Source: Nitrospirota bacterium (GTDB taxonomy: Bacteria > Nitrospirota > Thermodesulfovibrionia > JACRGW01). From it: 33,471 nucleotides of DNA. A program made the translations under genes and the position numbers. Below the pieces are notes generated by a model. The model made no database searches. It saw nothing but the letters and a program-made list of their open reading frames with translations, and was not told the DNA's origin. The stretch covers positions 1-33,471 of the forward strand of contig JACRGW010000158.1 in NCBI GenBank assembly GCA_016212195.1. Direction: 5' to 3'. Within the stretch, counting starts at the first letter, position 1, and each line of letters starts with the position of its first letter. Below, piece by piece: positions 9,969 through 28,695 of the stretch.

Positions 9969-10409
9969 TTGAGAGTGGTGCTACAGAGGGTGAGGGAGGC
10001 ATCGGTAGAAATAGATAAAGAGGAGTTAGGGAGAATTGGGTATGGACTGGTTGTCCTTCTCGGAGTTGCTAAGGGAGACAGCTTCAGTGATATAGAGTAC
10101 CTTGCAGAAAAGATATGCAATCTAAGAATATTTGAGGATGAGGAGGGGAAACTTAATCTTTCCCTTCTGGATAAGAAAGGGGATTTACTTGTAATTTCTG
10201 AGTTCACCCTTCTTGGGAATACCAGAAAGGGGAGAAGGCCTGGTTTTGATGATGCAGCCCATCCAGATGAAGCAAGGAAACTCTATGAAAGTTTTGTAAC
10301 TGTCTTAAGAGATAAGGGCATTAAGGTAAAGACAGGGGAGTTCGGGTCTAAGATGTTAGTGAAGATATACAATGATGGGCCAGTTACATTTATAATTGAT
10401 AGTGGATAG
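9969..10409 (+). CDS. dtd: D-aminoacyl-tRNA (D-Tyr-tRNA) deacylase
   Basis: MRVVLQRV...SVEI, SQFTL-type motif (ISEFTLLGNTRKGRRPGF), C-terminal NDGPVTFIIDS. The start is TTG, with AGGAGGGT 9 nt upstream. Confidence 0.93.
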   Translation: MRVVLQRVREASVEIDKEELGRIGYGLVVLLGVAKGDSFSDIEYLAEKICNLRIFEDEEGKLNLSLLDKKGDLLVISEFTLLGNTRKGRRPGFDDAAHPDEARKLYESFVTVLRDKGIKVKTGEFGSKMLVKIYNDGPVTFIIDSG

Positions 10410-10424: not shown

Positions 10425-10453
10425 TTGATATTCCAGAGGTTATATGATAAATT
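10425..10453 (+). promoter_or_regulatory. Candidate sigma70-type promoter TTGATA-17 nt-TAAATT directly in front of cheA
   Basis: The -35 is at 10425..10430 and the -10 at 10448..10453. The cheA ATG at 10460 follows after 6 nt with no Shine-Dalgarno sequence. Confidence 0.3.
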
Positions 10454-10459: not shown

Positions 10460-12487
10460 ATGCCAGATACAGGTGGTGAGAGATCAAAGAAGGAGTTTTT
10501 AGGTGAGGCCGAAGATCTCCTGACAGAAATCAACAATAATGTTGAAGAATTAGAAGAAACCTACCAGGAGAGATTTAATCCTGATACCCTGAATGCCATC
10601 TTTAGGGGAGTCCATTCCCTAAAAGGGCTATCAGGGATATTTAGCCTCAATAGAATGTCCGAGTTGAGTCACCGCCTTGAATCCCTTCTTGATACTCTCC
10701 GTCTCGGTAAGATTGAACTTAACCGTGATGTCCTCAATCTTATTATAGAAGGATTAGGTATATTGAGGAAACTTCTTGGAGATGCAGAAAAGGGAGAAGA
10801 GGTTACTGATATTGAAGGCATACTTTCTGATATTGATCTCTTTATTAGAGATAGGACAAAAAGTTCTGAGATTTCTATCATAGATACCCTTGATATCGAC
10901 CAGGCAATCCTTAAAGTCCTCACCGAATATGAAGAGTACCGCCTGAAGACCAATATTAAAGAAAGCAGAAATATCTTTCTTCTGAAGGCAAGTTTTGGCC
11001 TGCAGAGTTTCGATACAGATCTGGAGGGTCTAAATAACAAAGTGAAGACCGTAGGAGAGGTTATTACAACCTTGCCTTCATCAGGGGTATCTCCTCAGGA
11101 AGGAATCCAGTTTACCCTTCTGATAGGTAGCAGTGAAGACCTTGAAGGGATAAGCGAGAGAGTAGGGAAGGGAAAGGTTGTTATTGAAGAGGTTGGCAGG
11201 AAGAAAGGGGTAGGAAATGTTGAAGGCATACAAACTTCGGAGAGATCAGACGAACCAAGGGTCAGACCTCCTTCTACCTCAGATACATCATTAAAAAGTA
11301 TGAGCAAGACAGTAAGGGTAGATATTGAGAGGTTAGATAGGCTTATGAATACAGTAGGTGAACTTGTTCTGACTAGGGCCGCCGTTGGCAGAATAAGTAA
11401 GGAACTAAAGCAGCTTCAGGGATATAGCATTCTTTCTATGGACCTTCAAAGGGTGTCACAGTCATTAGGTAAGAGACTCACCGCATTACAGAATGAGATT
11501 ATGGAGGTGAGGATGATACCTGTAGGGCAGATCTTCTCAAGACTTTCTCAGGTTGTGAGACGTTACAGCAAGGATATAGAAAAAGAGGTAGATATGGAAT
11601 TTTATGGCGAAGAGACAGAACTGGATAAATTCTTGGCAGAGGAGACAGCCGATCCGCTGATGCATATTATAAGAAATGCTATCGATCATGGTATCGAAAC
11701 CCCTGATATCAGGAGAAGATCAGGCAAAAAAGAGAGTGGTACTGTACGGCTCAGCGCCTTTCCAAGAGGTAATCATGTTGCCATAACTATCGAAGACGAC
11801 GGAGCAGGCATTGACACGGACACAGTCATTAAAAAGGCGATTGAGAGAGGTCTCGTCGAGAGGGATGCCGTATTGAATAAAAGAGAGATACTGGAACTTC
11901 TCTTTCTCCCTGGTTTTACTACTAAAAGAGACGTGACAGAAATGTCAGGCCGTGGTGTGGGATTGGATGTGGTGAAGACAAGGGTCTCTGATCTTAGTGG
12001 TTTCATTGATATTGATACAGAGTTTGGAAAGGGGACTACCTTCACAATTACAATTCCTATTACCTTAGCGATCATTAAAGCACTTATTGTAAAGGTTTCG
12101 AAGGAGATATTTGCGATCCCTATTAACTCGGTATCTGAAAACCTGATGATTCCTTTCCAGAAGGTGCAGAGGATAGAGAAGAAGGAGGTCTTGGAACTGA
12201 GGGGAGAGATGCTACCTCTTATGAGACTGGATAAGACATTCAATCTGCCTCCTGGTGAGGATACAGAGAATATTAATATTGTAGTAGTAGGTTTTGGAGA
12301 GAGAAGGATCGGCTTAGTGGTGAGTGATTTTATAGGACAGCAGGAGATTGTAATAAAATCTCTTGGAGAAAGCCTCAAGGGTGTCCCTGGGATTTCAGGG
12401 GCAACAGAAATGGGAAAGTATAAGGTTATACTCGTTTTAGATGTAGAGGCCCTTATTGACGAGGCAATGACGAGGAGAAGGGCATAA
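10460..12487 (+). CDS. cheA: Chemotaxis histidine kinase CheA
   Basis: Hpt domain with the phospho-His context FRGVHSLKGLSG, dimerisation segment VRVDIERLDRLMNTVGELV, HATPase boxes (HIIRNAIDHGIE, DDGAGID, GRGVGLDVV) and a C-terminal CheW-like domain. Confidence 0.93.
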   Translation: MPDTGGERSKKEFLGEAEDLLTEINNNVEELEETYQERFNPDTLNAIFRGVHSLKGLSGIFSLNRMSELSHRLESLLDTLRLGKIELNRDVLNLIIEGLGILRKLLGDAEKGEEVTDIEGILSDIDLFIRDRTKSSEISIIDTLDIDQAILKVLTEYEEYRLKTNIKESRNIFLLKASFGLQSFDTDLEGLNNKVKTVGEVITTLPSSGVSPQEGIQFTLLIGSSEDLEGISERVGKGKVVIEEVGRKKGVGNVEGIQTSERSDEPRVRPPSTSDTSLKSMSKTVRVDIERLDRLMNTVGELVLTRAAVGRISKELKQLQGYSILSMDLQRVSQSLGKRLTALQNEIMEVRMIPVGQIFSRLSQVVRRYSKDIEKEVDMEFYGEETELDKFLAEETADPLMHIIRNAIDHGIETPDIRRRSGKKESGTVRLSAFPRGNHVAITIEDDGAGIDTDTVIKKAIERGLVERDAVLNKREILELLFLPGFTTKRDVTEMSGRGVGLDVVKTRVSDLSGFIDIDTEFGKGTTFTITIPITLAIIKALIVKVSKEIFAIPINSVSENLMIPFQKVQRIEKKEVLELRGEMLPLMRLDKTFNLPPGEDTENINIVVVGFGERRIGLVVSDFIGQQEIVIKSLGESLKGVPGISGATEMGKYKVILVLDVEALIDEAMTRRRA

Positions 12488-12535
12488 AAATCAAAGTGCA
12501 AAATTATCATTTAGCATTGAAGATTTTAAATTTAA

Positions 12536-12562
12536 AATGCTAATTGCTAAATTTACAATGAA
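12536..12562 (+). repeat. Short dispersed intergenic repeat, copy B (AATGCTAATTGCTAAATTTACAATGAA), with an inverted partial copy at 12507..12518
   Basis: See copy A. TCATTTAGCATT at 12507..12518 is the reverse complement of AATGCTAAATGA. It can form an 8-bp stem with 12536..12543 across a 17-nt AT-rich loop. Confidence 0.45.
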
Positions 12563-12581
12563 AGATTAAACGGACTTTACG

Positions 12582-13394
12582 ATGTACGAAGAATATTATG
12601 GATTTAAGATGAAGCCATTCAGTAAGACCCCTGATCCGAGATTTCTCTATATGAGTAAAGGTCATGCCGAGGCACTTGCCAGGTTACAGTATGGAGTTGA
12701 GGAGAAAGAGTTTATTCTGCTCACCGGAGAGATTGGCTCGGGGAAAACCACACTTTCGAGGGCACTCATAGACTCCCTTAATAGTTCCCATAAGATTGTC
12801 TTGATTATTAATCCCCGTCTGAGCCCGGTTAACCTGTTAAAGACCCTTGCAAACGGATTTGGCATAGATCGCCCTTCGAGATCCAGAAATAATATCCTGG
12901 AAGTTATCTATAACTCTCTCTATAATCTTTATACCGAGGGGAATGTACCTGTTATTATCATCGATGAGGCACAGCTGATACCAAGTAAAGATACCTTTGA
13001 AGAGATCAGGCTGCTCACAAATTTCCAGCTCGATGATACAAACCTTCTCTCAATAGTCCTTATAGGACAACCGGATTTAAGGAAAAGACTTGGGGGGAAG
13101 TCGTATCAATCTCTGAGACAGAGGATAGGTCTGCTCTATCACCTTGAAGGACTTACTGAAGAAGAGGTTTGTGCCTATATAAATCATAGAATATCTGTAG
13201 CAGGAAGGGAGGAAAGGACCTTCACGGAAAGTGCCATCAGATCTGTCCACAGGCATTCAGGAGGGATCCCGAGGAAGATTAATAACCTCTGTACATATGC
13301 CCTCCTCGAAGGTTTCGGAAGAGGTGTGAGCCTGATAGAGGAAGATATAATAGAGGATGTCGCAGGGGAGTTAGGCTTTGCTCTAAAAGGATGA
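12582..13394 (+). CDS. ExeA/MshM-type AAA+ (AAA_22-like) ATPase consisting of the ATPase module only
   Basis: The N-terminal YGFKMKPFSKTPDPRFLY is typical of ExeA. Walker A is GEIGSGKT and Walker B is VIIIDEAQ, followed by LIGQP. At 270 aa there is no room for the C-terminal peptidoglycan-binding part of ExeA. Confidence 0.85.
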   Translation: MYEEYYGFKMKPFSKTPDPRFLYMSKGHAEALARLQYGVEEKEFILLTGEIGSGKTTLSRALIDSLNSSHKIVLIINPRLSPVNLLKTLANGFGIDRPSRSRNNILEVIYNSLYNLYTEGNVPVIIIDEAQLIPSKDTFEEIRLLTNFQLDDTNLLSIVLIGQPDLRKRLGGKSYQSLRQRIGLLYHLEGLTEEEVCAYINHRISVAGREERTFTESAIRSVHRHSGGIPRKINNLCTYALLEGFGRGVSLIEEDIIEDVAGELGFALKG

Positions 13395-13406
13395 GTATTT
13401 CTTTTT

Positions 13407-13435
13407 TGTCACCATGAACGTAGCGAAGGGCTCAG
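13407..13435 (+). repeat. Possible solo relative of the 24647 repeat family (TGTCACCATGAAC...AGGGCTCAG)
   Basis: It shares the 13-mer pattern TGTCAYSMTGAAC with 24647 (+, TGTCACCCTGAAC) and 24706 (-, TGTCATGCTGAAC). It is not itself a hairpin. Confidence 0.3.
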
Positions 13436-13459
13436 AGTAACAAAAAGTGAGGAATAGAA

Positions 13460-14143
13460 ATGGATTTAGTGAATATTAGGAAAAAGGCACAGCAGGAGAA
13501 GGCGAAAGAAGAAAAACCCCAGGACTCAACCCAGAAACAGGTTCAGGGAAAGACTGAGGATGCTGAGGCAAATCTTCAAGTCGAAGGGGAGATAACAGAA
13601 GAGGCAATATCAATTGAAAAGGATGAAACAGGGATGCCTTTACAATCAGGCGGGGTTGAGTTATCCCAAGAGATAAGGGAAGAGATTCAGGAGATTCCTT
13701 CTTTACCATACAGCGAAGAAGAGTCAGTAGTTGAGGTAATATCCTTTAGGCTTGGGGATGAAATTTACGGTGTGAAGATAGATTATGTAAGGGAAATACT
13801 CAAACCTCTCGAGATAACATCTGTTCCGAGAACACCTTCTTATCTAAAGGGTGTAACATCCTTAAGAGGGGAGATTATCCCTGTCTTTGATCTCAAGGAA
13901 AGATTGGGTCTGGAAGGAATTCAGCAGGATAAAAAGAGAAGAATTCTTATACTCTCAATAAGGAACGAGACTATAGGTGCTGTGATTGATGAGGTTCTTG
14001 GAGTTATTAAGCTCCTTAAGGAGTCTATAGATTCTACTCCTACTATTATCACAGGTATAGAGGCAGATTTTCTCGAAGGGATAAGCCTGGTAGATGATAG
14101 ATTCATTGGCCTCCTTAATGTTGAAGAGGTCATGAAAATATAG
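13460..14143 (+). CDS. cheW: CheW-like coupling protein with an ~85-aa acidic, low-complexity N-terminal extension
   Basis: The CheW domain starts around VISFRLGDEIYGVKIDYVREI...LRGEIIPVFDLKERLG. The preceding part is rich in K, E and Q. Confidence 0.85.
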   Translation: MDLVNIRKKAQQEKAKEEKPQDSTQKQVQGKTEDAEANLQVEGEITEEAISIEKDETGMPLQSGGVELSQEIREEIQEIPSLPYSEEESVVEVISFRLGDEIYGVKIDYVREILKPLEITSVPRTPSYLKGVTSLRGEIIPVFDLKERLGLEGIQQDKKRRILILSIRNETIGAVIDEVLGVIKLLKESIDSTPTIITGIEADFLEGISLVDDRFIGLLNVEEVMKI

Positions 14144-14167
14144 TCGAAAAACTATTTGAGGAAGAAT

Positions 14168-16642
14168 ATGAGTCTACCTAATATCTTTAAGGGAAGATTA
14201 AGAATAAAAATCCTCAGTCTGGCGGTCGCAATCCTGGGCCTCGAGATGGTATTCCTTGTTATCCTGACATTAGAATTAAAGAGGGATATAATCCAGCTTT
14301 TCCTTTTGGCATCAACTGTAGCGATCTTCTTTACGATAATCCTTCAGGTTCTTTTGAGAAGGATGGTCATTGAGCCCATTGAAAGACTGGTGGATTCTAT
14401 GAAGAAGGTCTCTGAGGGAAATCTCACCCCGATTTCTGGGATTACATCAAGGGATGAAATAGGTGATCTAACTAATACAATAAATGAATCCATATTCCAT
14501 ATGGGGAGCATGATTGGTGGAATAAATGATGTATCAAAAGAAGTAGAGAGGGTGGGTTCTCAGGTATCCGATGATTCTAAGAGGTTAATCGAATTTGCCC
14601 AGATACAGCTTGGTTCTATTGAAACAATTACTGGATCAATTGAAGAATTAAATGCAGCAATCAAGGGGATCGCCTCCTCTATAGATGAGTTGTCTATCTC
14701 GGCTGTACAGACCTCATCTTCTATACTCGAAATGATGTCATCAGTGGATGAAGTGGCAAATTCAACTGTTACACTATCCACCTCTGTAGAGGGAACAGCG
14801 TCTTCTATAGATGAGATGAACGCCTCAGTAAAGGAAGTGGCTCAAAGTGCAGAGGTCCTTTCTAAGGCGTCAGAAGAGACATCTTCTGCTGTTGAGGAGA
14901 TCAACGCTACTATAAAAGAGGTAGAAATCGCTTATAGGGAGAGTGCGAGGCTCGCTGATAAGGTTAAGGAAGATGCCTCACAGCTCGGAATGGTCTCTAT
15001 AGAAAAGACAATAGAGGGAATGAAAGGGATAAAAGAGAAGGTGGAGAGGACCGCGGAATTGATAAACAGGCTCGGCAGCAGAAGCGAAGAGATAGGGAAG
15101 GTCATTAATGTTATAGATGAGGTTACTGACCAGACATCCCTCCTTGCCCTTAATGCTGCTATCCTGGCTGCCCAGGCAAAGGAACATGGCAAGGGTTTCT
15201 CAGTGGTAGCGGAGGAGATTAAGGATTTGGCTGAAAAGACAGCGGCTTCTACAAAAGAGATAGGAGACCTCATCGCCTCTGTTCAGGGAGAGGCTAAAGG
15301 TGCGGTAGAGGCGATGGGAGAGGGGCTCAGTAAGGTGGAAGAAGGGGTCAGGCTTAGCAAGGAGGCAGGAGATGCCTTAAAACAGATACTGGAAAGTGCG
15401 AAGATTTCTTCTGAGATGGCATCTTCGATAGAGAGGGCGACTATAGAACAGGTCAAGGGTATAAAACAGGTCGTTGGGGCAATGGACAGGATAAGGGATA
15501 TGATAGTTCATATTTCTAACGCTATTTCCGAACAGACAAAAGGGGTTGGACAGATAGTCCTTGCGGCTGAGAAGATGAGGGATATTACAGAGAAGGTTAG
15601 ATCTGCCACTTCTGAGCAATCTAAGGCAAGTAAGCAGATAACCCAGGCAGTTGAGATTGTTACTGAAAAGATTCAGGACATGTCACATTCTATACAGGAG
15701 CAGAAGATTGGAAGTAATTTGATAATGAATTCTATAGAGGGGGCAAGGGATATACCAAAGAGGAATGTAGATATCGCCTTCGAGATAAACCAGAGGATAC
15801 TTACCCTGATAAAGGCTACAGACCTTCTTAAGGCAGAAACGGGGAGATTTAAGATAAGCGAGGTTTATATCCGAGAAAAGGGTTTAAGGATGGGTGTTAT
15901 ACCCTTAGAGTCCCCGGCAGAGATGTTCAGGAAATTTACCCCCTTGACTGAATATCTATCGATAGCCCTTGGTATGAAGGTAAGTCTTAAACTTGCCCTC
16001 GATTTTGAAGGGACTATAGAAGATTTAGGCAAAGGTGTTACCCAGATCTGTTATATGACACCCACAACCTATATAGAGGCAAGCCAGAGATACGGGGTTA
16101 GGCCCATTGTTAAAGAAGTCCTCGATGGAAAACCTTTCACCAATTCTGTAATAGTAGCAAAGGAAGGGAGCAAAGTTAATACGGTTGAAGATATAAGGGG
16201 TAGGACCTTTGCCTTTGGCGATCCAAAATCGACAACAAGCCATATCATCCCAAGAAATATGCTCCTGGAGGTTGGAATAGATCTTAAAGACCTTAGGTCT
16301 TATAGATACCTGGGACATCATGATAATGTTGCCCAGGCTGTTCTAAAAGGGGAGTTTGATGTTGGCGGAATGCTCGAATCTATCGCCTATAAGTTCATCC
16401 CTCAGGGGCTGAAGATTATCAAGGTATCTACAGATATCCCGGGGTTTAATATATGTGTAGCTAAAGACATTGACCCAACAGTAAAGGAAAAACTTAAAAA
16501 GACCCTTCTCGACATAAACAATCAAAAGGAAGAGACAAAAAAAATCCTTAAAGCTATAAATCCGAGACAGACAGGATTTGTCGAGGCCCATGACGATGAC
16601 TACAGCGGGATAAAAAAGATGATGAGAACTATTAAATTATAA
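14168..16642 (+). CDS. Methyl-accepting chemotaxis protein: TM hairpin, HAMP, very long signalling domain, and a C-terminal PhnD-like (type 2 periplasmic-binding-protein fold) domain
   Basis: Two adjacent TM helices with almost no loop, then HAMP (PIERLVDSMKKVSEGNL...DEIGDLTNTIN). The conserved hairpin tip is LLALNAAILAAQAKEHGKGFSVVAEEIKDLAEKT. The C-terminal ~250 aa resemble PhnD (GVIPLESPAEMFRKFTPLTEYLS..., FAFGDPKSTTSHIIP, GHHDNVAQAVLKGEFDVGG). The track starts at TTG 14156. I prefer ATG 14168, which lies behind GAGGAAG. Confidence 0.9.
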   Translation: MSLPNIFKGRLRIKILSLAVAILGLEMVFLVILTLELKRDIIQLFLLASTVAIFFTIILQVLLRRMVIEPIERLVDSMKKVSEGNLTPISGITSRDEIGDLTNTINESIFHMGSMIGGINDVSKEVERVGSQVSDDSKRLIEFAQIQLGSIETITGSIEELNAAIKGIASSIDELSISAVQTSSSILEMMSSVDEVANSTVTLSTSVEGTASSIDEMNASVKEVAQSAEVLSKASEETSSAVEEINATIKEVEIAYRESARLADKVKEDASQLGMVSIEKTIEGMKGIKEKVERTAELINRLGSRSEEIGKVINVIDEVTDQTSLLALNAAILAAQAKEHGKGFSVVAEEIKDLAEKTAASTKEIGDLIASVQGEAKGAVEAMGEGLSKVEEGVRLSKEAGDALKQILESAKISSEMASSIERATIEQVKGIKQVVGAMDRIRDMIVHISNAISEQTKGVGQIVLAAEKMRDITEKVRSATSEQSKASKQITQAVEIVTEKIQDMSHSIQEQKIGSNLIMNSIEGARDIPKRNVDIAFEINQRILTLIKATDLLKAETGRFKISEVYIREKGLRMGVIPLESPAEMFRKFTPLTEYLSIALGMKVSLKLALDFEGTIEDLGKGVTQICYMTPTTYIEASQRYGVRPIVKEVLDGKPFTNSVIVAKEGSKVNTVEDIRGRTFAFGDPKSTTSHIIPRNMLLEVGIDLKDLRSYRYLGHHDNVAQAVLKGEFDVGGMLESIAYKFIPQGLKIIKVSTDIPGFNICVAKDIDPTVKEKLKKTLLDINNQKEETKKILKAINPRQTGFVEAHDDDYSGIKKMMRTIKL

Positions 16643-16664
16643 CAGGATTGAAAGGAGGAAGAAT

Positions 16665-16694
16665 ATGAATCTAAGAAATATGAATCTAAGAAAT
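16665..16694 (+). repeat. Perfect 15-bp tandem duplication that includes the MCP start codon
   Basis: ATGAATCTAAGAAAT occurs twice in a row, giving MNLRN-MNLRN. Confidence 0.8.
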
Positions 16695-18746
16695 AAAGCA
16701 ATTTTATTAATGGTCCTGATCCTCCTTTCGGTATTAAGTATAAATACAATAGTTCTCATGAAGGTAGTGACAGGTAGATACAAAAATGCCCTTCTTGTTA
16801 AAACAACACTTATAGGGAAAGGAATTAAAAGTGAGATAAGTAGGCCAGCGGAAGTAGGCGTCCCCCTCGGGAGTCTTTTAGGGGTTAATGATATGTTGAG
16901 GAGGCTAATCGAAGAGAATAAGGATATTGGTTATTCTATGGTTGTTGATAGCACAGGTAAGATCCTCTTCCATAATGATCAAGTTATGATTAGTAAAACT
17001 CTTACAGAGATACCGGAGATGGAGGCTATAAAGACCGAGGAGTTTATAACTAAACCCGTGGGAGATTATTATGAAACAACCCTTCCACTATTTGGTCCTG
17101 AGAAAAAACTCGTTGGCTTTATAAAAGTGGCACTTAAGAAGAAAGAGTTATCAGCTCAGATCTCCTCCATGCTTTTGAAATCTATAACTGTTGCTCTCGT
17201 AGGATTTATCTTGGGCATTACCCTTGTAGCCTTCTTTGTTTCAAGATTCATAACAAGGCCTATAACAACCTTTGCCTCTACAGCCTTTGAGATAACAAGG
17301 GGAGACTTCACAAAGACAATAGAGATAAGATCTAATGATGAAGTTGGGGAACTAGGTGGGACGATAAACAGGATGGTAGAGAACCTCGGAAATATTTTCA
17401 AAAGGTTTAAGTCAGCTGCTATGAATGTATCCATGGCAGCCGAGCAGATAGCGATAAACTCTAAGAAAATGACTACAGGTTCAAGAACTCAGGTAGAGGC
17501 AGTTGAGAAGACATCCTCCTCTCTACAGGAGTTGAACTCAACTATCAGGGAGATTGCAAACTCTGTATCTACACTTTCTACATCTGCAGTAGAAACTTCA
17601 TCTTCTGTCCTCGAGATAAGTTCCTCAATAGAAGAGGTTGCAAATAGTACCTCCGGCCTTGCAGGCACTATCTCTGAAACAACGGCTTCCCTGGAACAGA
17701 TAGGGGCCTCTGTTAAAAAAGTTGCAAGGAGTGCGGAGGTCTTAGAGGAGGCAATATCCGAAACAGGAGGGGCCGCAGCGGAGATTGATGCTGCCATAAG
17801 GACTGTAGCGGATAATGCAAAGGAATCATCAATGCTTGCAGGTAAGGTTGTCTCCGATGCCTCGGAGTTTGGGATGGTCTCTGTTGTTAATGCAATAGAT
17901 GGGATGGATAAAATAAAAGGTTCTGTAAAGAAGGCCGGTGATTCAGTAAACCACCTGAAGGAGAGATCATTGGAGATAAATAAAATCGTTGCTGTTATTG
18001 ATGCAGTAACTTCCAGAACAAACCTCCTGGCATTAAACGCAGCAATCTTAGCTGCCCAGGCAGGGGAACACGGTAAAAGTTTTTCTGTTGTGGCAGAAGA
18101 GATCAGGGAACTTGCAGAGAAGACTTCTGCTTCTACAAAAGAGATAGCCGATCTGATAGTGACGATCCAGCAGGAGACACAGGATACTGTAGATATAATG
18201 AAGGAAGGTCTTATAAGGGTAGATGATGGTAATAAACTGGTTTACGCAGTAGGTGATGCCTTAAGGACGATCATCCATTCTTCACAGCAGTCCCAGGTTG
18301 CAGCAAAGGGCATAGAAGGGGCAGCTGTTGAACAGGCGAGGGGTGTGAAACAGGTGACTGAATCTGTTGAAAGAGTAAAAGATATGATAGTGAATATTGC
18401 GAATGCAATCCGTGAACTCAGGAACGGGACAGACCAGATTGTGAAGGCAATGGAGGTTGTAGATAGTATATCTAAACATGTGAAAAAGGCTATGGAAGAC
18501 CAGTCAAGTGGGAGCAGGCAGATAGGCTCAGTTGCTGAAAATACGGTGGAGAAGACACGGCTAATATCAAAGGCAACAGAAGAGCAGAGAATCGGGACTG
18601 AATCCATCCTTCGGTCTATCGACGAGGTTAAGACCGTGGCTGTGGAAGGAATGGATATAGCCTCTGAGATAGATCTTGCTATGGAGGGCATCAGGAAGGA
18701 TGCTGAAGACCTGAAAAGAGTGGTTGAGGTATTTAAGGTAAAATAA
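16665..18746 (+). CDS. Methyl-accepting chemotaxis protein: TM, ~135-aa Cache-like periplasmic domain, TM, HAMP, very long signalling domain
   Basis: The periplasmic segment carries the Cache-like GYSMVVDSTGKILFHND. HAMP reads RPITTFASTAFEITRGDF...DEVGELGGTINRM. The tip is LLALNAAILAAQAGEHGKSFSVVAEEIRELAEKT. It is a paralog of the preceding MCP. Confidence 0.9.
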   Translation: MNLRNMNLRNKAILLMVLILLSVLSINTIVLMKVVTGRYKNALLVKTTLIGKGIKSEISRPAEVGVPLGSLLGVNDMLRRLIEENKDIGYSMVVDSTGKILFHNDQVMISKTLTEIPEMEAIKTEEFITKPVGDYYETTLPLFGPEKKLVGFIKVALKKKELSAQISSMLLKSITVALVGFILGITLVAFFVSRFITRPITTFASTAFEITRGDFTKTIEIRSNDEVGELGGTINRMVENLGNIFKRFKSAAMNVSMAAEQIAINSKKMTTGSRTQVEAVEKTSSSLQELNSTIREIANSVSTLSTSAVETSSSVLEISSSIEEVANSTSGLAGTISETTASLEQIGASVKKVARSAEVLEEAISETGGAAAEIDAAIRTVADNAKESSMLAGKVVSDASEFGMVSVVNAIDGMDKIKGSVKKAGDSVNHLKERSLEINKIVAVIDAVTSRTNLLALNAAILAAQAGEHGKSFSVVAEEIRELAEKTSASTKEIADLIVTIQQETQDTVDIMKEGLIRVDDGNKLVYAVGDALRTIIHSSQQSQVAAKGIEGAAVEQARGVKQVTESVERVKDMIVNIANAIRELRNGTDQIVKAMEVVDSISKHVKKAMEDQSSGSRQIGSVAENTVEKTRLISKATEEQRIGTESILRSIDEVKTVAVEGMDIASEIDLAMEGIRKDAEDLKRVVEVFKVK

Positions 18747-18763
18747 CTCAAGGACTGATTTAT

Positions 18764-19237
18764 ATGGAAGATCAAGAAACCAGAGTAGCTATTTTTTCCG
18801 TAGGTGAAGAGGAATATGCGATAGATATAATGAGAGTGGTTGAGATTCTTAGACCACAAAAGGTAACAAGACTTCCTAAGAGTCCGGATTTTATAGAGGG
18901 GGTGTTAAACCTGAGAGGAAAGGTTATCCCTATAGTAGACCTCAGAAAAAGATTCGGTATTGAACCTACTGACAGACATGGGAATGAACGGATATTATTA
19001 ATCCGGGTAGGGGAAGAGATAGTTGGACTTCAGGTGGATGGAATAAGTGATGTACGCAGTCTCTCAAGGGAAGATATAGTGTCTCCCCCAACTATTGTTA
19101 AGGGAATAAAAACCGAATATCTCGAAGGTGTTGGAAAGGTAGGGGAGAAGTTAATAATAATACTGAATCTTGATAAGATCCTCTCTACAGAAGAGATGCT
19201 TGTTCTTGAATCAATTGAAGAGACTGAAAAGGCATAA
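18764..19237 (+). CDS. cheW: CheW coupling protein
   Basis: A 157-aa protein consisting of a single CheW domain (FSVGEEEYAIDIMRVVEILR...LRGKVIPIVDLRKRFG). Confidence 0.9.
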   Translation: MEDQETRVAIFSVGEEEYAIDIMRVVEILRPQKVTRLPKSPDFIEGVLNLRGKVIPIVDLRKRFGIEPTDRHGNERILLIRVGEEIVGLQVDGISDVRSLSREDIVSPPTIVKGIKTEYLEGVGKVGEKLIIILNLDKILSTEEMLVLESIEETEKA

Positions 19238-19251
19238 GGTCTAACATCCTC

Positions 19252-21264
19252 ATGGAGAGAATATTGGATAGTTTTGCGGATTTGGTGAAGGGTATTAATG
19301 ACGAAAATGCAGAGATAAGAAGATTATCTGCCTTGGGGCTTGCTGATTATGGTGAGGAATCTATCCCTCACCTCCTTAAGACCTTAGGAGATGCTGATTG
19401 GCGTGTCAGGAAGACCTCTGTTGAGTCATTCCTGAAGATTGGCGGAAGAAGGGTTATAGAAAGCCTCATCTCATCCCTGAATATCCAGGATAATGCAGGG
19501 GCAAGAAACTCCGCAATAGAGGCACTCACAAGGATAGGGAAGGAGGCAGTCCCATTTCTTATAAACAGCTTTGAGGACGCCCATCAAGATGTCAGAAAAT
19601 TCATCGTCGATATCCTCGGAGAAGTAGGAGACAAAAGAGCTACCCCTCTCTTTATTGCGGCGTTAACAGATAGGGATGATAATGTTAGATTCTCTGCAAT
19701 AGAACATCTCGGTAAGATAAGAGATGAGAAGGCAATAAATCCCCTTTTGAAGATATTTAAAAAGAAGGAACTCTGGCTTAGCTATCCTGCTGCTATTTCA
19801 CTCGGTAATATTGGAGATTCAAGGGTTCTCGAGCCACTTCTTGATGCCCTTAAAGAGAAACCACTGAGAGAGGCAGCCTTAAAAGGCCTTGGTGCCCTGG
19901 GGGATAAAAGGGCACTGGCTCAGGTTATAAAATTCCTGAAAGACCCTTCGAGGTCAATCAGGGAAATTTCACTCCAGGTTATTATAGATATTTCGAAGAA
20001 GAATCCTAATGATAAGGGGACCATCACAATTATAAAGGAAAATATTGATAGAGAGATATCAGACTATCTGCTCCAGTCCCTCAAAAGAGAGAAGGCTCAG
20101 ATAAAATTAGCATCCGTAAGGCTTTTGGGATGGGTGGGGGCTGAAAGGGCTGTTGAGCCACTTGTAAACCTTCTCCAGGAAGACGAACTTCAAGAAAAGG
20201 TAATGGAGGCACTCTTAATTCTTGGTAGGGGTGGTGCTATCCATGCCCTTATCCCCTTCTTAGATAACCCTGATAATATTATCAGGAGATGTATATCCTA
20301 TCTCTTAGGAGAGATAGGTGATAGTACTGCTGTTGAGGCACTGATAAAATCCCTATCTGATGAAGACGGGCATGTAAGGGGAAACTCAATGATAGCCTTA
20401 GGGAAGATAAAGGATAGAAGGGCTATAATCCCTCTCATGGATTTCCTTAATGATGAATATAATAATGTCCAGGAATCTGCCGTAACTGCCCTGGTCGAGA
20501 TAGGGACTGAGGTGGAACAACTCCTTCCTATGCTTTCTTCAAAGGAATCAGATTTTAGAAAGAATATAGCCCTGCTTTTAGGCAGGCTAAAAGCGAAGAA
20601 AGCGGTCTCATCCCTTGGCTTTGTTATCAAAGATGAGTCACCTGAAGTAAGGGAGGCGGTTGTAAAGGCACTTGGTATGATAGGGGGAGAGGAGGCAGGA
20701 AGATTTTTAATTTCAGCCTTGACCGACGAGGAGCCACGGGTAAAAATGGCATCTGCCATTGCCATCGGCGAAATTAGTTATAAAAAGGGGATTGATTCCC
20801 TTATCATACTTCTTAAAGATGAAAATAGCAGGGTAAGAGCAGCAGTTGCAAGAGGTATTGGAAAACTTAAGAATCCAGCCGCCGTCCTTCCCCTTATAGA
20901 ACTCCTTGATGATAAAGACCCTATGGTCAGAATCTCTGTAATTGAGTCCTTAGGAGAGATAGGAGATATGTCAGCACTTCCGTACCTATTACGACTCCTT
21001 AAAGAAAAAGACCCTGAACTAAAAAAGATCACCATCAGAACACTTTCTAAACTGGGCTTTAATAAGGTTCAGGCCCTTGAAATCTTAAAGGAGCTTCTGC
21101 CTCTCCTTTCGGATAGAGACTGGGGTGTAAGGAAGGCAGTATTAGAAGTATTAGGGAGATTTCCTGAGAAGGATGTTAAAGGATATATCATTAAGGTAGC
21201 CGAGACAGATGAAGACGAAGTGGTCAGAAAGACAGCGGATGATATACTTAAAGGTAAGAAATGA
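19252..21264 (+). CDS. HEAT-repeat protein (PBS-lyase HEAT-like repeats, roughly 20 units)
   Basis: The whole 670 aa shows ~31-aa periodic units of the form D.D..VR..A..ALG.IGD..A...L...L.D. Confidence 0.85.
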   Translation: MERILDSFADLVKGINDENAEIRRLSALGLADYGEESIPHLLKTLGDADWRVRKTSVESFLKIGGRRVIESLISSLNIQDNAGARNSAIEALTRIGKEAVPFLINSFEDAHQDVRKFIVDILGEVGDKRATPLFIAALTDRDDNVRFSAIEHLGKIRDEKAINPLLKIFKKKELWLSYPAAISLGNIGDSRVLEPLLDALKEKPLREAALKGLGALGDKRALAQVIKFLKDPSRSIREISLQVIIDISKKNPNDKGTITIIKENIDREISDYLLQSLKREKAQIKLASVRLLGWVGAERAVEPLVNLLQEDELQEKVMEALLILGRGGAIHALIPFLDNPDNIIRRCISYLLGEIGDSTAVEALIKSLSDEDGHVRGNSMIALGKIKDRRAIIPLMDFLNDEYNNVQESAVTALVEIGTEVEQLLPMLSSKESDFRKNIALLLGRLKAKKAVSSLGFVIKDESPEVREAVVKALGMIGGEEAGRFLISALTDEEPRVKMASAIAIGEISYKKGIDSLIILLKDENSRVRAAVARGIGKLKNPAAVLPLIELLDDKDPMVRISVIESLGEIGDMSALPYLLRLLKEKDPELKKITIRTLSKLGFNKVQALEILKELLPLLSDRDWGVRKAVLEVLGRFPEKDVKGYIIKVAETDEDEVVRKTADDILKGKK

Positions 21265-22145
21265 TAGGAATGAATGGATCGTTCAAGATGTCTGATGACA
21301 CATTCAGACTCATCCGAGATTTTATAAGGAATTATTGTGGGGTATATTTCGACGATGGATCTAAATTCCTCCTGGAAAAGAGGCTATCGAGAAGGGTAGA
21401 GAATTATCTCTTAAATAACTTTGAGGATTATTACCATTTTTTAATGTATGATAAAAGGAGAGATGAAGAACTGGCATCGGTGATAGATGTCTTAACAGTA
21501 AATGAAACCTACTTCTTCAGGGAATTCTCTCAGCTTAAGGCATTAAGCGATGAGATCATCCCTGAAATCGGTGAGAGGAGGAAGGATAAGAAAAGACTCA
21601 GGATATGGTCAGCAGGTTGTTCTACAGGCGAAGAGCCTTATACAATCGCGATATTGATACTTGAGAAAAATCTCATGCCTGAATGGGAGATAGAGATACT
21701 GGGAAGTGATATAAACCAGAGGGTTATTCATGCAGCAAGGAGAGGGATTTACAGAAAGAACGCCTTCAGGAGTATTGATGATTATTATATCAGAAAGTAT
21801 TTCACAGATGAAGGAGAAGGGAATTACAGGATTGTTGATCCTGTAAGGAGTTTGGTGAACTTCAGCCTTCTGAATCTCGTAGACCCCTTTAAAGTAAGAT
21901 TTGTTGGTAAGATGGATGTGATATTCTGCAGGAATGTAATTATCTATTTTGACAGGGACGCAAAGAAAAAGGTAATCAATAATTTTTATGATAGACTCAC
22001 AGAAGAAGGTTATCTCCTTTTAGGTCACTCCGAGTCTTTAATGAATATTTCTACTGACTTCATGCTAAAGCATCTCAAGAATGACCTTGTTTACCAGAAA
22101 CCCACAAGATCGGCATTAACAGGAGAGATGGTATGGAAAAGATAA
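21261..22145 (+). CDS. cheR: Chemotaxis protein methyltransferase CheR
   Basis: The N-terminal helical domain contains TVNETYFFRE. The SAM-binding fold contains RIWSAGCSTGEEPYTIAI and IFCRNVIIYFD. The start overlaps the upstream stop as ATGA. Confidence 0.9.
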   Translation: MIGMNGSFKMSDDTFRLIRDFIRNYCGVYFDDGSKFLLEKRLSRRVENYLLNNFEDYYHFLMYDKRRDEELASVIDVLTVNETYFFREFSQLKALSDEIIPEIGERRKDKKRLRIWSAGCSTGEEPYTIAILILEKNLMPEWEIEILGSDINQRVIHAARRGIYRKNAFRSIDDYYIRKYFTDEGEGNYRIVDPVRSLVNFSLLNLVDPFKVRFVGKMDVIFCRNVIIYFDRDAKKKVINNFYDRLTEEGYLLLGHSESLMNISTDFMLKHLKNDLVYQKPTRSALTGEMVWKR

Positions 22146-23200
22146 GGGTTCTTGTTGTAGATGACTCTCCATATAGTCGTCAGACAATAACAAGGATGCT
22201 TCAGCAGACATCTTTCATCGATGCAATCGGTACCGCTTCTGACGGTAAGGAGGCGATGTCAAAGGTGATAAAATTCAGGCCTGATGTAGTGACACTCGAT
22301 TTAGCGATGCCGGTTATGGATGGTTTTGCCTTCCTTAGATGGGTAATGAAAGAATTTCCTCTACCTGTCATAGTAGTAAGTTTCTACGCGGATGACAGGA
22401 GTTTTCTTAAGGCCTTTGAGCTTGGTGCAGTAGATTTTATTTTAAAGCCGACAGCCAGGGCATCACCTGAACTTCAGAAGATCAAGGACGAACTGATAGA
22501 AAAGATAAGTGCAGTCGCACATCTTGAAATGTCTAAAATGAAGGCTAATCTTGATCTCCTTACGAGTGATGATAGTAAGTATAGAGAGATTGAAGATGTG
22601 TTTCCTGAGCCAAAGGGAGTTGAGCTTATTGCGATCGGCGCATCAACAGGTGGACCTCCTGCGATTCAGGCCATCCTTTTGAGGCTTCCGAAAAACCTTC
22701 CTGCTGGGGTTGTTATATCCCAGCATATGCCTGAAGGATTCACAAAACATTTTGCTGAAAGGCTTGATACCATATCTCCCCTCCATGTAAAAGAGGCAGA
22801 GGATGAAGATACTGTTGAAAGGGGGAAGATTCTTATAGCACCTGGCGGTTATCATATGGTCCTGGAAAAGAAAGGGGAAAATGTTAAGACAATACTAAGA
22901 AAGAAAAGTGATGCTGATAAGTATGTCCCTTCGGTAAATCTGATGATGAAGTCTTCCGCAGCAGTTTATGGAAGAAAGGTACTTGGTGTTATTCTTACAG
23001 GAATGGGAAACGATGGGAAGGATGGTATGAAGGCGATAAAAGAGAAGAAGGGTCAGACCATTGTAGAGTCTGAGGAGACCTCTGTTGTATTCGGGATGCC
23101 ACAGGAGGTTATAACTGCAGGGGCTGCTGATAAGGTGCTCCCCTTAAAGAAGATCCCCGAGGAGATAATTAAGAGATGTATGATGGATGAAAAACCGTAA
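22133..23200 (+). CDS. cheB: Chemotaxis response regulator protein-glutamate methylesterase CheB
   Basis: The REC domain contains VLVVDDS and TLDLAMPVMDG. The esterase domain contains IGASTGGP, SQHMPEGFT and GMGNDG. The gene overlaps cheR by 13 nt. Confidence 0.92.
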   Translation: MEKIRVLVVDDSPYSRQTITRMLQQTSFIDAIGTASDGKEAMSKVIKFRPDVVTLDLAMPVMDGFAFLRWVMKEFPLPVIVVSFYADDRSFLKAFELGAVDFILKPTARASPELQKIKDELIEKISAVAHLEMSKMKANLDLLTSDDSKYREIEDVFPEPKGVELIAIGASTGGPPAIQAILLRLPKNLPAGVVISQHMPEGFTKHFAERLDTISPLHVKEAEDEDTVERGKILIAPGGYHMVLEKKGENVKTILRKKSDADKYVPSVNLMMKSSAAVYGRKVLGVILTGMGNDGKDGMKAIKEKKGQTIVESEETSVVFGMPQEVITAGAADKVLPLKKIPEEIIKRCMMDEKP

Positions 23201-23243
23201 ACAGTTAACCGTAAACTGTCAACCGTTTTAAGGGAGGTATAAC

Positions 23244-24068
23244 TTGGGACCCAGAAAAGGAGAAGGCAAAATTCAGAAAAAGTCTGAGGAGTTCCTTCAG
23301 ATATTCAGAAAAGGTGAGGAATTTACACAGGAACTTCTTAAAGAGAATGAGAGGTTAAGGTTTAAATTGGTTGAGCTTGAGGAAGAACTCAAGGAGATGG
23401 GTAAGAACAGGGTAAAATTCCTTGAGGAGCGTAGTCGTATCCTTGAGAAAGAGAAGAAAGAGATTCAAGAGAGGTATAGACAGGTGGAGGCAGAGAATAA
23501 AGACTTTGTTGCTAAATATCTGGATGTAGAAGAGGAGAATAATAATCTTGCTAACCTGTATGTGGCAAGCTACCAGCTCCACTCCACACTCGATTTTAAT
23601 GAGGTATTGAGAACTGTTATCGAGATAGTATCAAATCTCATCGGGGCCGAAAGATTTGCTATTATGATTGTGGATGAAATGACAGAAGAGCTAAAAGTGA
23701 TCGCCTCTGAGGGACTTAATAAGGAAGATATCCCTAAAGTAAAATCTGGAGAAGGGATTATAGGAGAGGTAGTAATAACAGGAGAAAGTTACTTTGAAGA
23801 ATTTGTTCCAGGACGCACCTCAAAGGACCTCTCTAAACCAGTAGTCTGCATACCCCTTAAGATCAAAGAAAAAGTAATAGGGGTAATAGCAATCTATTCA
23901 CTCCTTATACAGAAAAAGGGTTTTATAAATGTTGACTATGAACTCTTCAATCTTTTAGTCGGTCATACAGCAACGGCAATATTTTCTTCGAAGCTCTATA
24001 CACAATCTGAAGGAAAACTGACAACAATTCAGACTTTCATTGACATTCTAAACGAGAAACCTCTATGA
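23244..24068 (+). CDS. Protein with an N-terminal ~100-aa coiled coil and a C-terminal GAF-like domain
   Basis: The first ~100 aa are heptad-rich and E/K/L-rich. The remainder (LDFNEVLRTVIEIVSNLIGAERFAIMIVDE...VIGVIAIYSL) follows the GAF pattern. The start is TTG with GGGAGG 6 nt upstream. Confidence 0.7.
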   Translation: MGPRKGEGKIQKKSEEFLQIFRKGEEFTQELLKENERLRFKLVELEEELKEMGKNRVKFLEERSRILEKEKKEIQERYRQVEAENKDFVAKYLDVEEENNNLANLYVASYQLHSTLDFNEVLRTVIEIVSNLIGAERFAIMIVDEMTEELKVIASEGLNKEDIPKVKSGEGIIGEVVITGESYFEEFVPGRTSKDLSKPVVCIPLKIKEKVIGVIAIYSLLIQKKGFINVDYELFNLLVGHTATAIFSSKLYTQSEGKLTTIQTFIDILNEKPL

Positions 24069-24099
24069 AAAGGCACCATATATTGAAGGGGGATTAGAG

Positions 24100-24474
24100 A
24101 TGTCAGATATAAACTTTCTTATAGTTGAAGATTCGCCGACGATGAGGCAATTGATTGCCTTTGCCCTTAAAAGGATTCAGAAGGCAAGGGTAGTGGAGGC
24201 CACAGATGGTGTTGATGCCCTGAAAAAGATGGTAGGTCAGAATTTTGACATGCTTTTTGTTGATATAAATATGCCTGTTATGGATGGTCTTAAGTTTGTT
24301 AGCCTCGTAAGGGCAGATCCAGCCAAAAAGGATGTTCCTATAATAATGATCACAACAGAAGGGGCTGAAGAAGATAGAAAAAGGGCTCTATCGCTCGGGG
24401 CCAGCGCCTATTTAACGAAGCCGATTCTGATACAGGAACTTCTACAGATTGTGAGTCAGCATCTGAAACAATAA
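24100..24474 (+). CDS. cheY: Single-domain CheY-like response regulator
   Basis: 124 aa with the acidic pair ED (IVEDS), phospho-acceptor context LFVDINMPVMDG, T in MITTEG and K in LTKP. Confidence 0.85.
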   Translation: MSDINFLIVEDSPTMRQLIAFALKRIQKARVVEATDGVDALKKMVGQNFDMLFVDINMPVMDGLKFVSLVRADPAKKDVPIIMITTEGAEEDRKRALSLGASAYLTKPILIQELLQIVSQHLKQ

Positions 24475-24724: not shown

Positions 24725-25705
24725 TTGATTAATTCAAAAAGATTTTTTAATGTTCTATTGATTATTTCTTCTCTATCTCTATTGTTTATATTCTTAAATC
24801 CCTCTGTATTCGCCTCTGAAGGTCAGGATATTGTCAGAGAAGTAGCTTCAGGTTCAAACACACCCTGGTGGGTTTGGCCTCTCGCCCTTTTCATTGTAAC
24901 ATTTATCCTCGGCATCTTGGCGGTCTTAGGTGGTGTGGGTGGAGGTGTTTTATTTGTACCGATTGTGGGCGGTTTCTTCCCCTTCCATCTCGACTTTGTG
25001 AGAGGTGCCGGCCTTCTTGTCGCACTTTCCGGTGCCCTCGCAGCGGGTCCGGGGCTTCTCAAGAGAAACCTCGCAAGTCTCCGTCTTGCCCTACCTGTTG
25101 CACTTATTGCATCATCTGCGGCAATAGTAGGTGCGATGATCGGACTTGCTCTGCCAACCCATATAATCCAGACACTTCTTGGTGCAACGATTATATTTAT
25201 TGTAGTGATCATGGCCTCGGCAAAGAAATCTTACTTCCCAAATGTCCCAAAACCTGATACCCTATCTCATAGCCTGGGAATAATGGGAATTTACAGGGAA
25301 GAATCCCTCGGAAAAGATATCGAATGGCGAATCCATAGGACACCACAGGGGCTGGCTCTATTTATAGCTATCGGCATAATGGCAGGCATGTTCGGGCTCG
25401 GTGCAGGGTGGGCAAATCTCCCTGTCTTAAACCTCCTTATGGGGGCCCCACTAAAGATCTCTGTTGCCACAAGTAAGTTTCTCCTTTCTATTACAGACAC
25501 AACTGCTGCCTGGGTTTATCTAAACGAAGGTGCAGTGTTGCCAATGATTGTCGTCCCATCCATGATTGGTATAATGCTCGGTTCAATTGTTGGTGTTAGG
25601 ATACTTGCAAAGGCAAAGCCAAAATCGATTAAATGGATTGTTATAGGACTCTTACTTTTTGCAGGGGTTAGGGCATTATTAAAGGGACTTGGAATATGGA
25701 AATAG
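24725..25705 (+). CDS. TSUP (TauE/SafE, DUF81) family anion exporter with an apparent N-terminal signal peptide
   Basis: Polytopic and Gly-rich, with GG(V/A)GGG-type motifs (LGGVGGGVLFVPIVG and the internal repeat half GMFGLGAGWANLPVLN). The N-terminus FFNVLLIISSLSLLFIFLNPSVFA/SEG looks like a signal peptide. The start is TTG behind GAGGAGGAG. Confidence 0.85.
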   Translation: MINSKRFFNVLLIISSLSLLFIFLNPSVFASEGQDIVREVASGSNTPWWVWPLALFIVTFILGILAVLGGVGGGVLFVPIVGGFFPFHLDFVRGAGLLVALSGALAAGPGLLKRNLASLRLALPVALIASSAAIVGAMIGLALPTHIIQTLLGATIIFIVVIMASAKKSYFPNVPKPDTLSHSLGIMGIYREESLGKDIEWRIHRTPQGLALFIAIGIMAGMFGLGAGWANLPVLNLLMGAPLKISVATSKFLLSITDTTAAWVYLNEGAVLPMIVVPSMIGIMLGSIVGVRILAKAKPKSIKWIVIGLLLFAGVRALLKGLGIWK

Positions 25706-27799: not shown

Positions 27800-28237
27800 T
27801 TATTTCTTCAATGCTATAATAAAATCTCTTATCTCTTTTACAAACCGCTCAAAATCGGTAAGGTTTTCTTTTAAAATGGTATATAGTTCTTTATCTTCCA
27901 CCTTATGATAAAAATGGATCAGGCGGTTTCTGTACCCTGCCATCAGGATAAGGCTGTTAGAGCAATCTCTTGTTGTAATCTTTTTATCACCGAGTACTTT
28001 TGCTATCTCTTTATACTCAACAATACCTTTCCCGGCTGTCTTTGCGATTATGTGCCTTCCTATGTCAAAGATCGCCTCCAGTGATCGCCTAAGATAGCTT
28101 TCTGCTATCGCAGGATTATCGTCTTTAAGAAATTCTACTTCACTGTAAAGGGAGAGCCTCTTTAATCTGGCTATAGCCTCATTGATAAAACCGAGTCTAT
28201 CTTCTATCAGCTTTATATTCAAATTCGAAATAACCAT
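27800..28237 (-). CDS. hepT: HepT (DUF86, HEPN-fold) toxin of a type VII toxin-antitoxin pair
   Basis: The HEPN Rx4H motif is present as RNRLIH in GYRNRLIHFYHKV. At 145 aa it is all-helical. It is paired with an upstream nucleotidyltransferase gene. Confidence 0.85.
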   Translation of the reverse strand: MVISNLNIKLIEDRLGFINEAIARLKRLSLYSEVEFLKDDNPAIAESYLRRSLEAIFDIGRHIIAKTAGKGIVEYKEIAKVLGDKKITTRDCSNSLILMAGYRNRLIHFYHKVEDKELYTILKENLTDFERFVKEIRDFIIALKK

Positions 28238-28649: not shown

Positions 28650-28656
28650 GGTGTTG

Positions 28657-28665: not shown

Positions 28666-28695
28666 CACTTCAAACTTTGATTCTGCTAAACTTTT

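Follow-up and report, generated by a model that had tools for sequence, protein, structure and literature searches.

A Nitrospirota chemosensory operon with conserved ATPase, HEAT-repeat, and GAF partners is probably a counterpart of the Geobacter beta-group (Esn) pathway

The Esn/beta-group pathway of Geobacter is among the few chemosensory systems tied to electrode colonization. The beta group was delineated by Tran et al. 2008, who describe it (PMC2577667) as conserved among delta-proteobacteria, as lacking genes for methyl-accepting chemotaxis proteins (MCPs; mcp genes), and as regulating extracellular matrix, the last point being cited there as unpublished work. In Geobacter sulfurreducens, Chan et al. 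(PMC5585712) identify GSU2220 as the CheW protein EsnB and GSU2222 as the CheA protein EsnC. Deletion of esnB or esnC made electrode colonization defective and left Fe(III) oxide reduction unaffected, and transposon-sequencing insertions in the GSU2221 ATPase gene gave a similar score (log2 of -2.1) in the same study. EsnC and EsnB are required for colonizing electrodes and not for motility. Insertion in esnB leads to a higher signal from a cGAMP reporter, as would fit signaling through the REC-GGDEF protein EsnD (PMC8835794), and a comparison of five Desulfuromonas genomes, three of them from strains without flagella, found beta-group clusters in every one (PMC8235581). A review of Geobacter chemotaxis (PMC8396549) makes no mention of che cluster 5. 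Here, we analyze a 33,471-nucleotide stretch of a Nitrospirota genome (contig JACRGW010000158.1 of assembly GCA_016212195.1; hereafter, the window), in which eleven genes at positions 10460–24474 form a che cluster. We propose that this cluster is probably the Nitrospirota version of the Geobacter beta-group che cluster 5, i.e., of the Esn network (GSU2212–2224).

The eleven genes are co-oriented plus-strand open reading frames (ORFs). An earlier reading made from the DNA letters alone (the sequence-only reading) had described them as a che cluster with three non-Che partners—an ExeA-type ATPase, a HEAT-repeat protein, and a GAF protein—and the ORF listing, Pfam, and NCBIfam bear out this description, with every assignment confirmed (Table 1). 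Its account of the spacing, mostly 12–43 nt or overlapping, was likewise correct apart from the surroundings of the ATPase gene: in gene order, the intergenic distances are 94, 65, 12, 22, 17, 14, -4, -13, 43, and 31 nt, the two widest gaps flanking the ATPase gene. The -4 interval is an ATGA overlap that joins the stop of the HEAT gene to the start of cheR, and cheR and cheB overlap by 13 nt.

To more quantitatively assess the conservation of this arrangement, we used two sets of loci. A genome scan with an alignment of the ATPase yielded 80 loci at 55–64% identity, on which the eleven window proteins were placed by tblastn; nearly all of these came from metagenome-assembled genomes (MAGs) of Nitrospirota/Thermodesulfovibrionia, with a few from Desulfuromonadales. 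A scan with an alignment of the GAF protein yielded 80 independent metagenome loci from relatives of at least 59% identity. CheA was located directly upstream of the ATPase in every genome locus with room for it (79/79), and the full order CheA-ATPase-long CheW-MCP(s)-CheW-HEAT-CheR-CheB-GAF-CheY was present in 17 genome loci, while three Desulfuromonadales loci kept the full order without mcp genes. At the distal end, GAF and CheY followed CheB in 20 of the 22 genome loci with at least 1.4 kb of flank. Among the GAF-anchored metagenome loci with enough flank, CheB was found upstream in 58/58, CheR in 48/48, and HEAT upstream of CheR in 35/35, and CheY lay directly downstream of GAF in 72/74. 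A neighborhood search for the ExeA/HEAT/GAF trio next to che genes, which the sequence-only reading had suggested, thus finds the trio syntenic in relatives, and with counts this high the prospect it had raised, namely that the accessory genes might be non-syntenic with che genes, is decisively dispelled.

The arrangement is repeated gene for gene in the close relatives L001 and L085. The latter is a Hainich groundwater MAG labeled Nitrospirota, whose MreB is 98% identical to that of the window and in which the series dtd-cheA-ATPase-cheW-mcp(PhnD)-mcp-cheW-HEAT lies beside mreBCD. Across relatives, identity to the window proteins was 55–64% for the ATPase, 56–67% for the GAF protein, and 58–68% for CheY, compared to 42–55% for CheA. 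Chance falls far short of explaining the eleven-gene arrangement, and the genes for the three accessory proteins, shared by hundreds of genomes, are conserved as co-inherited parts of the che system. The core with receptors is widespread in Nitrospirota, mostly in Thermodesulfovibrionia lineages of groundwater and sediment, and this occurrence therefore extends the range of the type beyond the delta-proteobacteria to which Tran et al. had confined it.

The combination of ATPase, HEAT, and GAF genes had been said by the sequence-only reading to belong to no described system. This proved wrong, because the same core order is found in Desulfuromonadales and because GSU2212–2224 can be recognized as a positional ortholog. 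In the Desulfuromonadales locus L083, the order is REC-CheA-ATPase-CheW (248 aa)-REC-CheW-Zn-ribbon/REC-HEAT-CheR-CheB-GAF-REC. In the cultured Geothermobacter ehrlichii (L167), this order recurs behind a PatA_N(DUF4388)-REC gene (L167:5824–7533, 569 aa); PSP1, holB, era, and der border the cluster at one end, and infA and leuS border it at the other. For G. sulfurreducens, PMC5585712 gives GSU2223 as cheY40H-1, GSU2222 as cheA40H, GSU2221 as the ATPase gene, GSU2220 as cheW40H-1, GSU2219 as cheY40H-2, GSU2218 as cheW40H-2, GSU2217 as cheY40H-3, and GSU2212 as cheY40H-4, with GSU2209 (leuS), GSU2225 (engA, i.e., der), GSU2230 (holB), and GSU2231 (PSP1) in the flanks. Since the gene count, the order, and the flanks of L167 (leuS at one end and der, holB, and PSP1 at the opposite end) match, we regard GSU2212–2224 as the positional ortholog, a link made from position, annotation, gene order, and flanks. 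By position, GSU2216 would be the HEAT gene and GSU2213 the GAF gene. In a homolog search, G. sulfurreducens was not among the best 120 matches to the Desulfuromonadales ATPase.

Two features of the window are of the Esn type. First, cheA is followed by an AAA_22 ATPase gene and then by an N-terminally extended cheW, as in GSU2222-2221-2220, L083, and L167; second, the HEAT gene precedes cheR-cheB, which are followed by the coiled-coil GAF gene and a terminal cheY, as in L083 and L167. The Desulfuromonadales proteins share 54–57% (ATPase) and 56–59% (GAF) identity with those of the window, and the Geobacter cluster and the window are alike in having no flagellar context. Unlike Geobacter, the window belongs to the phylum Nitrospirota.

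The first of the three partners, the ATPase, carries a Walker A motif (GEIGSGKTT) and a Walker B motif (IIIDEAQ) that are invariant among homologs together with several arginines, and its homologs number more than 7400 at E ≤ 1e-20. The family is annotated ExeA/GspA, with PEP-CTERM/MSHA/GspA-type ATPases as the nearest relatives; against NCBIfam TIGR03015 (PEP-CTERM-type ATPase), the protein scored 260 bits over its full length, below the cutoff of 324. The AlphaFold2 model (pLDDT 88) consists of a bare AAA+ base plus lid and found its best Foldseek matches in MuB, which forms filaments, ORC/Cdc6, RuvB, and TnsC. The predicted fold thus points to the initiator/switch clade of AAA+ proteins (oligomerizing switch/loader ATPases), not to ParA/MinD; a PDB sequence search with the ATPase returned P-loop noise only. 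In many relatives, the cheA and ATPase genes overlap.

About a dozen "minimal" loci (e.g., L003/L007:7619–13435) retain only cheY-cheA-ATPase, which links the ATPase with CheA and not with the receptors. Next to these three genes, on the opposite strand, lie genes for a Ras-like GTPase and a GAF-GGDEF diguanylate cyclase, and the latter neighbor hints at a link to cyclic di-GMP.

Beyond the ATPase gene, the long CheW begins with MDLVNIRKKAQ (first 11 codons, 13460–13492), continues with an acidic low-complexity linker, and ends in a CheW domain at residues 92–225. A peptide of the form MD(I/L)xxIRKK(A/L)K is invariant in 53 long-CheW orthologs from two phyla, including Desulfuromonadales, and the linker of ~80–150 residues behind it is variable. 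This N-terminal peptide resembles a short linear motif for docking or membrane binding. The Vibrio ParC/ParP and Rhodobacter PpfA modules resemble the window in that an ATPase gene and CheW-like genes stand side by side in a che operon. Like the long CheW, ParP starts with a short conserved peptide, from which a flexible linker leads to a CheW-type domain at the C terminus. ParC, in contrast, is a ParA/MinD-family ATPase, whereas the ATPase of the window falls by Foldseek into the MuB/ORC/TnsC clade of AAA+ proteins. As for the short CheW, its gene is placed directly upstream of the HEAT gene in relatives too.

The HEAT protein contains at least 10 HEAT_2 units, with NblB/CpcE-like repeats by NCBIfam (below cutoff). 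Its identity is 29–39% to most orthologs and 68% in L001, and an exact-sequence look-up returned no record. In long-term anode lines of G. sulfurreducens KN400, a "HEAT-like repeat-containing protein," KN400_2162, was mutated in two lines (PMC13194489); going by its locus number, it may be the GSU2216 counterpart. The GAF protein is the most conserved accessory component, with 56–67% identity among Nitrospirota and Desulfuromonadales orthologs and strongly conserved motifs at its N terminus, at the junction of coiled coil and GAF domain, and at its C terminus. Its family comprises 353 clusters (50% identity) at E ≤ 1e-30, mostly of ~270–290 aa. The protein is closest in the PDB to the GAF domain of 5w10 (4e-8), which is of the cNMP type, and inspection of the sequence revealed no obvious NKFDE-type motif in the GAF domain.

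The CheY adjacent to the GAF protein is the sole stand-alone receiver in the window and its nearest relatives. As read from the sequence, its phospho-acceptor pocket is intact (E10/D11 and D55), and the switch residues T85, Y104, and K107 are present. CheA has a P1 Hpt domain with His52 in an HSLKG motif, a P2-like linker, and P3, P4, and P5 domains, and its best solved homologs are those of E. coli (6s1k, 332 bits) and T. maritima (1b3q, 318 bits).

A HEAT protein in a che operon is also known from the Che7 system of Myxococcus xanthus, which, like the window, combines a HEAT-repeat phycobilin-lyase-like protein with a stand-alone CheY and has a CheA without a fused REC. Che7 includes the desaturase Des7; in contrast, the window cluster holds no desaturase. 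Unlike the window, Che7 (MXAN_6959–6965, by continuity of locus tags) has no ATPase gene between cheA and cheW, and its receptor Mcp7 is soluble, whereas both MCPs of the window are membrane-anchored. In Che7, CheY7 binds the HEAT protein Cpc7 (PMC11514114). For the HEAT protein of the window, Che7/Cpc7 would be a reasonable analogy, drawn by description.

We then turn to the receptors, which set the Nitrospirota version apart. The first MCP has two N-terminal transmembrane helices, no periplasmic loop or domain, and a HAMP domain that ends at residue ~118, with the hairpin tip at E343, giving 224 aa per arm. The second has two transmembrane segments, a HAMP end at residue ~243, and a hairpin tip at E468, with arms of 224 aa back to the HAMP end and 225 aa to the C terminus. 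Since 224–225 residues per arm amount to 32 heptads, both receptors are of class 64H (the "40+24H" of Tran et al.). In the cluster-embedded MCPs of relatives, the C-terminal arm also measures 224–225 residues, or ~485–492 where an extra domain is present.

In the first MCP, Pfam Phosphonate-bd covers residues 579–816 of a PhnD/PtxB-like domain at residues ~575–828 (window 15878–16642). Compared with the PDB, this domain matched PtxB (5o2j, 2.3e-31) and ArrX (1e-17), and its anion-loop motif STTSH aligned to STSSH of PtxB; the C-terminal domain is a genuine solute-binding fold of the PhnD/PtxB type. No signal peptide, transmembrane segment, or hydrophobic segment follows the bundle in this protein, and the domain must therefore be cytoplasmic. 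The solute-binding proteins AioX, ArrX, PtxB, and PhnD belong to the same family, AioX being a known signaling member (PMC8050422). AioX-type proteins are periplasmic and free-standing, whereas the domain in the window is cytoplasmic and fused to the C terminus of a chemoreceptor. The MCP-PhnD fusion is found in ~35 related loci and not in L001, where the MCP has 564 aa. New in the Nitrospirota version are receptors within the operon, both of class 64H, one of them with a cytoplasmic, oxyanion-binding domain of the PhnD/PtxB type, along with the single CheY and the invariant peptide at the N terminus of the long CheW. Since the receptor genes are inside the operon, the likely receptors of the pathway can be named, i.e., an sCache sensor and a cytoplasmic PhnD-like sensor.

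In the mechanism that we propose, the receptors, CheA, and both CheWs would assemble into an array, CheR and CheB would provide adaptation, and CheA would phosphorylate CheY. Since the operon provides no enzymatic or DNA-binding output, phospho-CheY would act by protein–protein contact, its target most likely being the HEAT scaffold (as for CheY7 and Cpc7), the coiled-coil GAF protein, or both. The GAF domain of this dimeric coiled-coil protein may add a small-molecule input. By analogy with Geobacter, the end effect would fall on surface colonization, matrix, or second-messenger/cyclic-dinucleotide state, not on flagellar rotation. The ATPase is proposed to be an array-associated assembly or remodeling factor that might dock on the basic peptide at the N terminus of the long CheW, the likeness to ParC/ParP serving as an analogy only. 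These proposals yield two interaction hypotheses: the ATPase with the N-terminal peptide of CheW, and CheY with the HEAT and GAF proteins. The value of the locus lies in this conserved ATPase/HEAT/GAF module and its testable interactions rather than in a new pathway class; nothing is overturned, and an apparent orphan becomes a tractable comparative problem.

A more specific form of the mechanism is speculative, and we give it little weight. It states that the ATPase and the long CheW might constitute a hitherto unrecognized, ParC/ParP-analogous, ATP-driven module for assembling, positioning, or remodeling the unusually tall 64H arrays, and that the pathway, with its PhnD-type oxyanion sensor, might report redox or extracellular-electron-transfer status to colonization via a CheY-HEAT-GAF complex. 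A porin-cytochrome conduit in the operons of some relatives would fit the redox/extracellular-electron-transfer part. In Nitrospirae bacterium GWC2_57_13 (L019:11650–14604), the che cluster is interrupted, after the long cheW and before the mcp genes, by an insertion that encodes a multihaem cytochrome (Paired_CXXCH_1) and an outer-membrane porin of the MtrB/PioB type, and these ORF families are present in about 8–10 related loci. Such a conduit in a che operon echoes, by analogy, the electrode-colonization role of the Geobacter Esn genes.

Several points weigh against assigning the window cluster to the Esn pathway. Two mcp genes (14156–18746) are found inside the cluster, in contrast to the beta group, which is defined as lacking them, and both receptors are 64H, whereas EsnA and GSU2222 are annotated 40H. 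The window encodes one REC-only protein, compared to four to five REC proteins in Geobacter, and lacks the PATAN-REC gene, the upstream CheY, the REC between the two CheWs, and the Zn-ribbon REC. On the functional side, mutant phenotypes of the Esn type are known solely from G. sulfurreducens, and the GSU2221 insertion phenotype is possibly polar on esnB. On the same side stand the conjectural nature of both proposed contacts, that of phospho-CheY with HEAT or GAF and that of the ATPase with the CheW peptide; the PDB comparison of CheA, which leaves F1-like and F7-like classes unseparated; the resemblance of the window CheY to classical motor-binding CheY; and the scope of the flagellar negatives, which cover the window, so that flagellar genes may lie elsewhere in the genome.

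The best-surviving rival, which we nevertheless consider unlikely, sees the output of the pathway in the control of type IV pili, of a related secretin machine, or of cell polarity, with CheY or PATAN proteins acting on a pilus motor and the ExeA/MshM-like ATPase linking the array to pilus or secretin assembly. A DUF4388/PATAN gene (~370 aa in Nitrospirota) lies just upstream of cheY-cheA in 54 related loci (e.g., L006:6452–7555), a PatA_N-REC gene does so in Geothermobacter, and in Synechocystis the type IV pilus motor is a binding partner of PATAN-REC regulators (bioRxiv 10.1101/2021.06.11.447907). The ExeA/GspA annotation of the ATPase and its nearness to PEP-CTERM/MSHA-type ATPases point the same way, as does the finding that pil and xap mutations affect the same Geobacter cGAMP reporter as esnB (PMC8835794). 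This rival is weakened by the absence of both the PATAN gene and the upstream CheY, present in almost all other loci, from the window, L001, and L085. Moreover, no pil or gsp genes were detected in the window (Pfam scan) or among the recurrent neighbor families, and neither Pfam nor sequence inspection revealed a peptidoglycan-binding or membrane domain in the ATPase.

Somewhat less credible again is ordinary flagellar (F-class) chemotaxis of motile Nitrospirota, in which the ATPase, HEAT, and GAF proteins would be lineage-specific swimming auxiliaries. The set of CheA, CheW, CheR, CheB, CheY, and transmembrane receptors is complete, and the single-domain CheY, with its T85/Y104/K107 switch, has its best PDB matches in the CheY of E. 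coli and Salmonella. In addition, CheA has the classical five domains without a fused REC and CheR has no TPR, so that the features typical of the class with alternative cellular functions, i.e., multidomain response-regulator output and/or a CheA-REC fusion and CheR-TPR (PMC3447774), are not seen. Set against this, no flagellar genes and no cheZ, cheC, cheX, cheV, or cheD were found among the larger ORFs of the window scanned against Pfam, as the sequence-only reading had correctly noted for all of these except cheX, nor among ten recurrent neighbor families scanned from the 80 genome loci. The orthologous Geobacter genes affect electrode colonization, and beta-group clusters persist in Desulfuromonas strains without flagella. 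The alternative, non-flagellar output favored by the sequence-only reading is the better supported of the two, and is best described as plausible but unproven. The idea that the ATPase, HEAT, and GAF genes are unrelated passengers, for which one could cite the lack of a known Che function of the trio and the 94- and 65-nt gaps around the ATPase gene, is effectively refuted by the synteny counts (position and order kept across two phyla and more than 100 loci), by conservation of GAF and ATPase (55–67% identity) exceeding that of CheA (42–55%), and by the translational overlaps HEAT/cheR and cheR/cheB.

Table 1. Genes of the che cluster and its immediate flanks, in window coordinates
Feature	Coordinates	Strand	Domain evidence
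dtd (D-Tyr-tRNA deacylase), upstream flank	9969–10409	same strand as cheA	
CheA histidine kinase, 675 aa	10460–12487	+	Pfam Hpt, H-kinase_dim, HATPase_c, CheW
AAA_22 / ExeA-GspA-MshM-type AAA+ ATPase, 270 aa	12582–13394	+	Pfam AAA_22 2.4e-25
Long CheW, 227 aa, ~90-aa N-terminal extension	13460–14143	+	Pfam CheW 1e-34
MCP, 828 aa, C-terminal PhnD-type domain	14156–16642	+	Pfam HAMP, MCPsignal, Phosphonate-bd 2.4e-63
MCP, 693 aa, periplasmic sCache	16665–18746	+	Pfam sCache_3_2 3.3e-8, HAMP, MCPsignal
Canonical short CheW, 157 aa	18764–19237	+	Pfam CheW 5e-40
HEAT-repeat protein, 670 aa	19252–21264	+	Pfam HEAT_2 5e-116, 10 stretches
CheR methyltransferase, no TPR fusion	21261–22145	+	Pfam CheR_N + CheR 9e-60
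CheB methylesterase with REC	22133–23200	+	Pfam Response_reg + CheB_methylest; NCBIfam PRK00742 388 bits, above cutoff
Coiled-coil + GAF protein, 274 aa	23244–24068	+	Pfam GAF_3 1e-16, residues 119–246
Single-domain CheY (REC-only), 124 aa	24100–24474	+	Pfam Response_reg 1e-28
TauE/TSUP gene, downstream flank	24725–25705		

The dtd and TSUP genes flank the cluster as the sequence-only reading had stated. Farther upstream, the flank contains CODH, Fer4, LytTR, rodA, PBP2, mreDCB, and RDD genes before dtd is reached, and downstream it contains TauE, DUF1634, a Na/H exchanger, a HepT/MNT pair, and an NtrC-type two-component system. In both the window and L085, dtd is located 50 nt 5' of cheA on the same strand, and it is possible that dtd is cotranscribed with the che operon. 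A weak promoter-like site is found at 10425–10453, between dtd and cheA; the scan for sigma-70 promoters and terminators was otherwise uninformative. In L001, a CHP04442 gene takes the place of dtd upstream of cheA.

On the minus strand at 354–3632, the window encodes a prismane/CO-dehydrogenase family protein (636 aa), an adjacent 4Fe-4S dicluster protein, and a 237-aa protein whose sole Pfam match is a C-terminal LytTR DNA-binding domain; this set is consistent with an anaerobic lifestyle. At 27800–28673, also on the minus strand, overlapping genes for a HepT-like RNase and a Polbeta/MNT nucleotidyltransferase form a HepT/MNT toxin–antitoxin pair. Finally, a sigma-54-dependent NtrC-type response regulator and a HAMP histidine kinase, encoded on the minus strand at 28696–31456, make up a two-component system distinct from the che cluster, 4 kb downstream of it.

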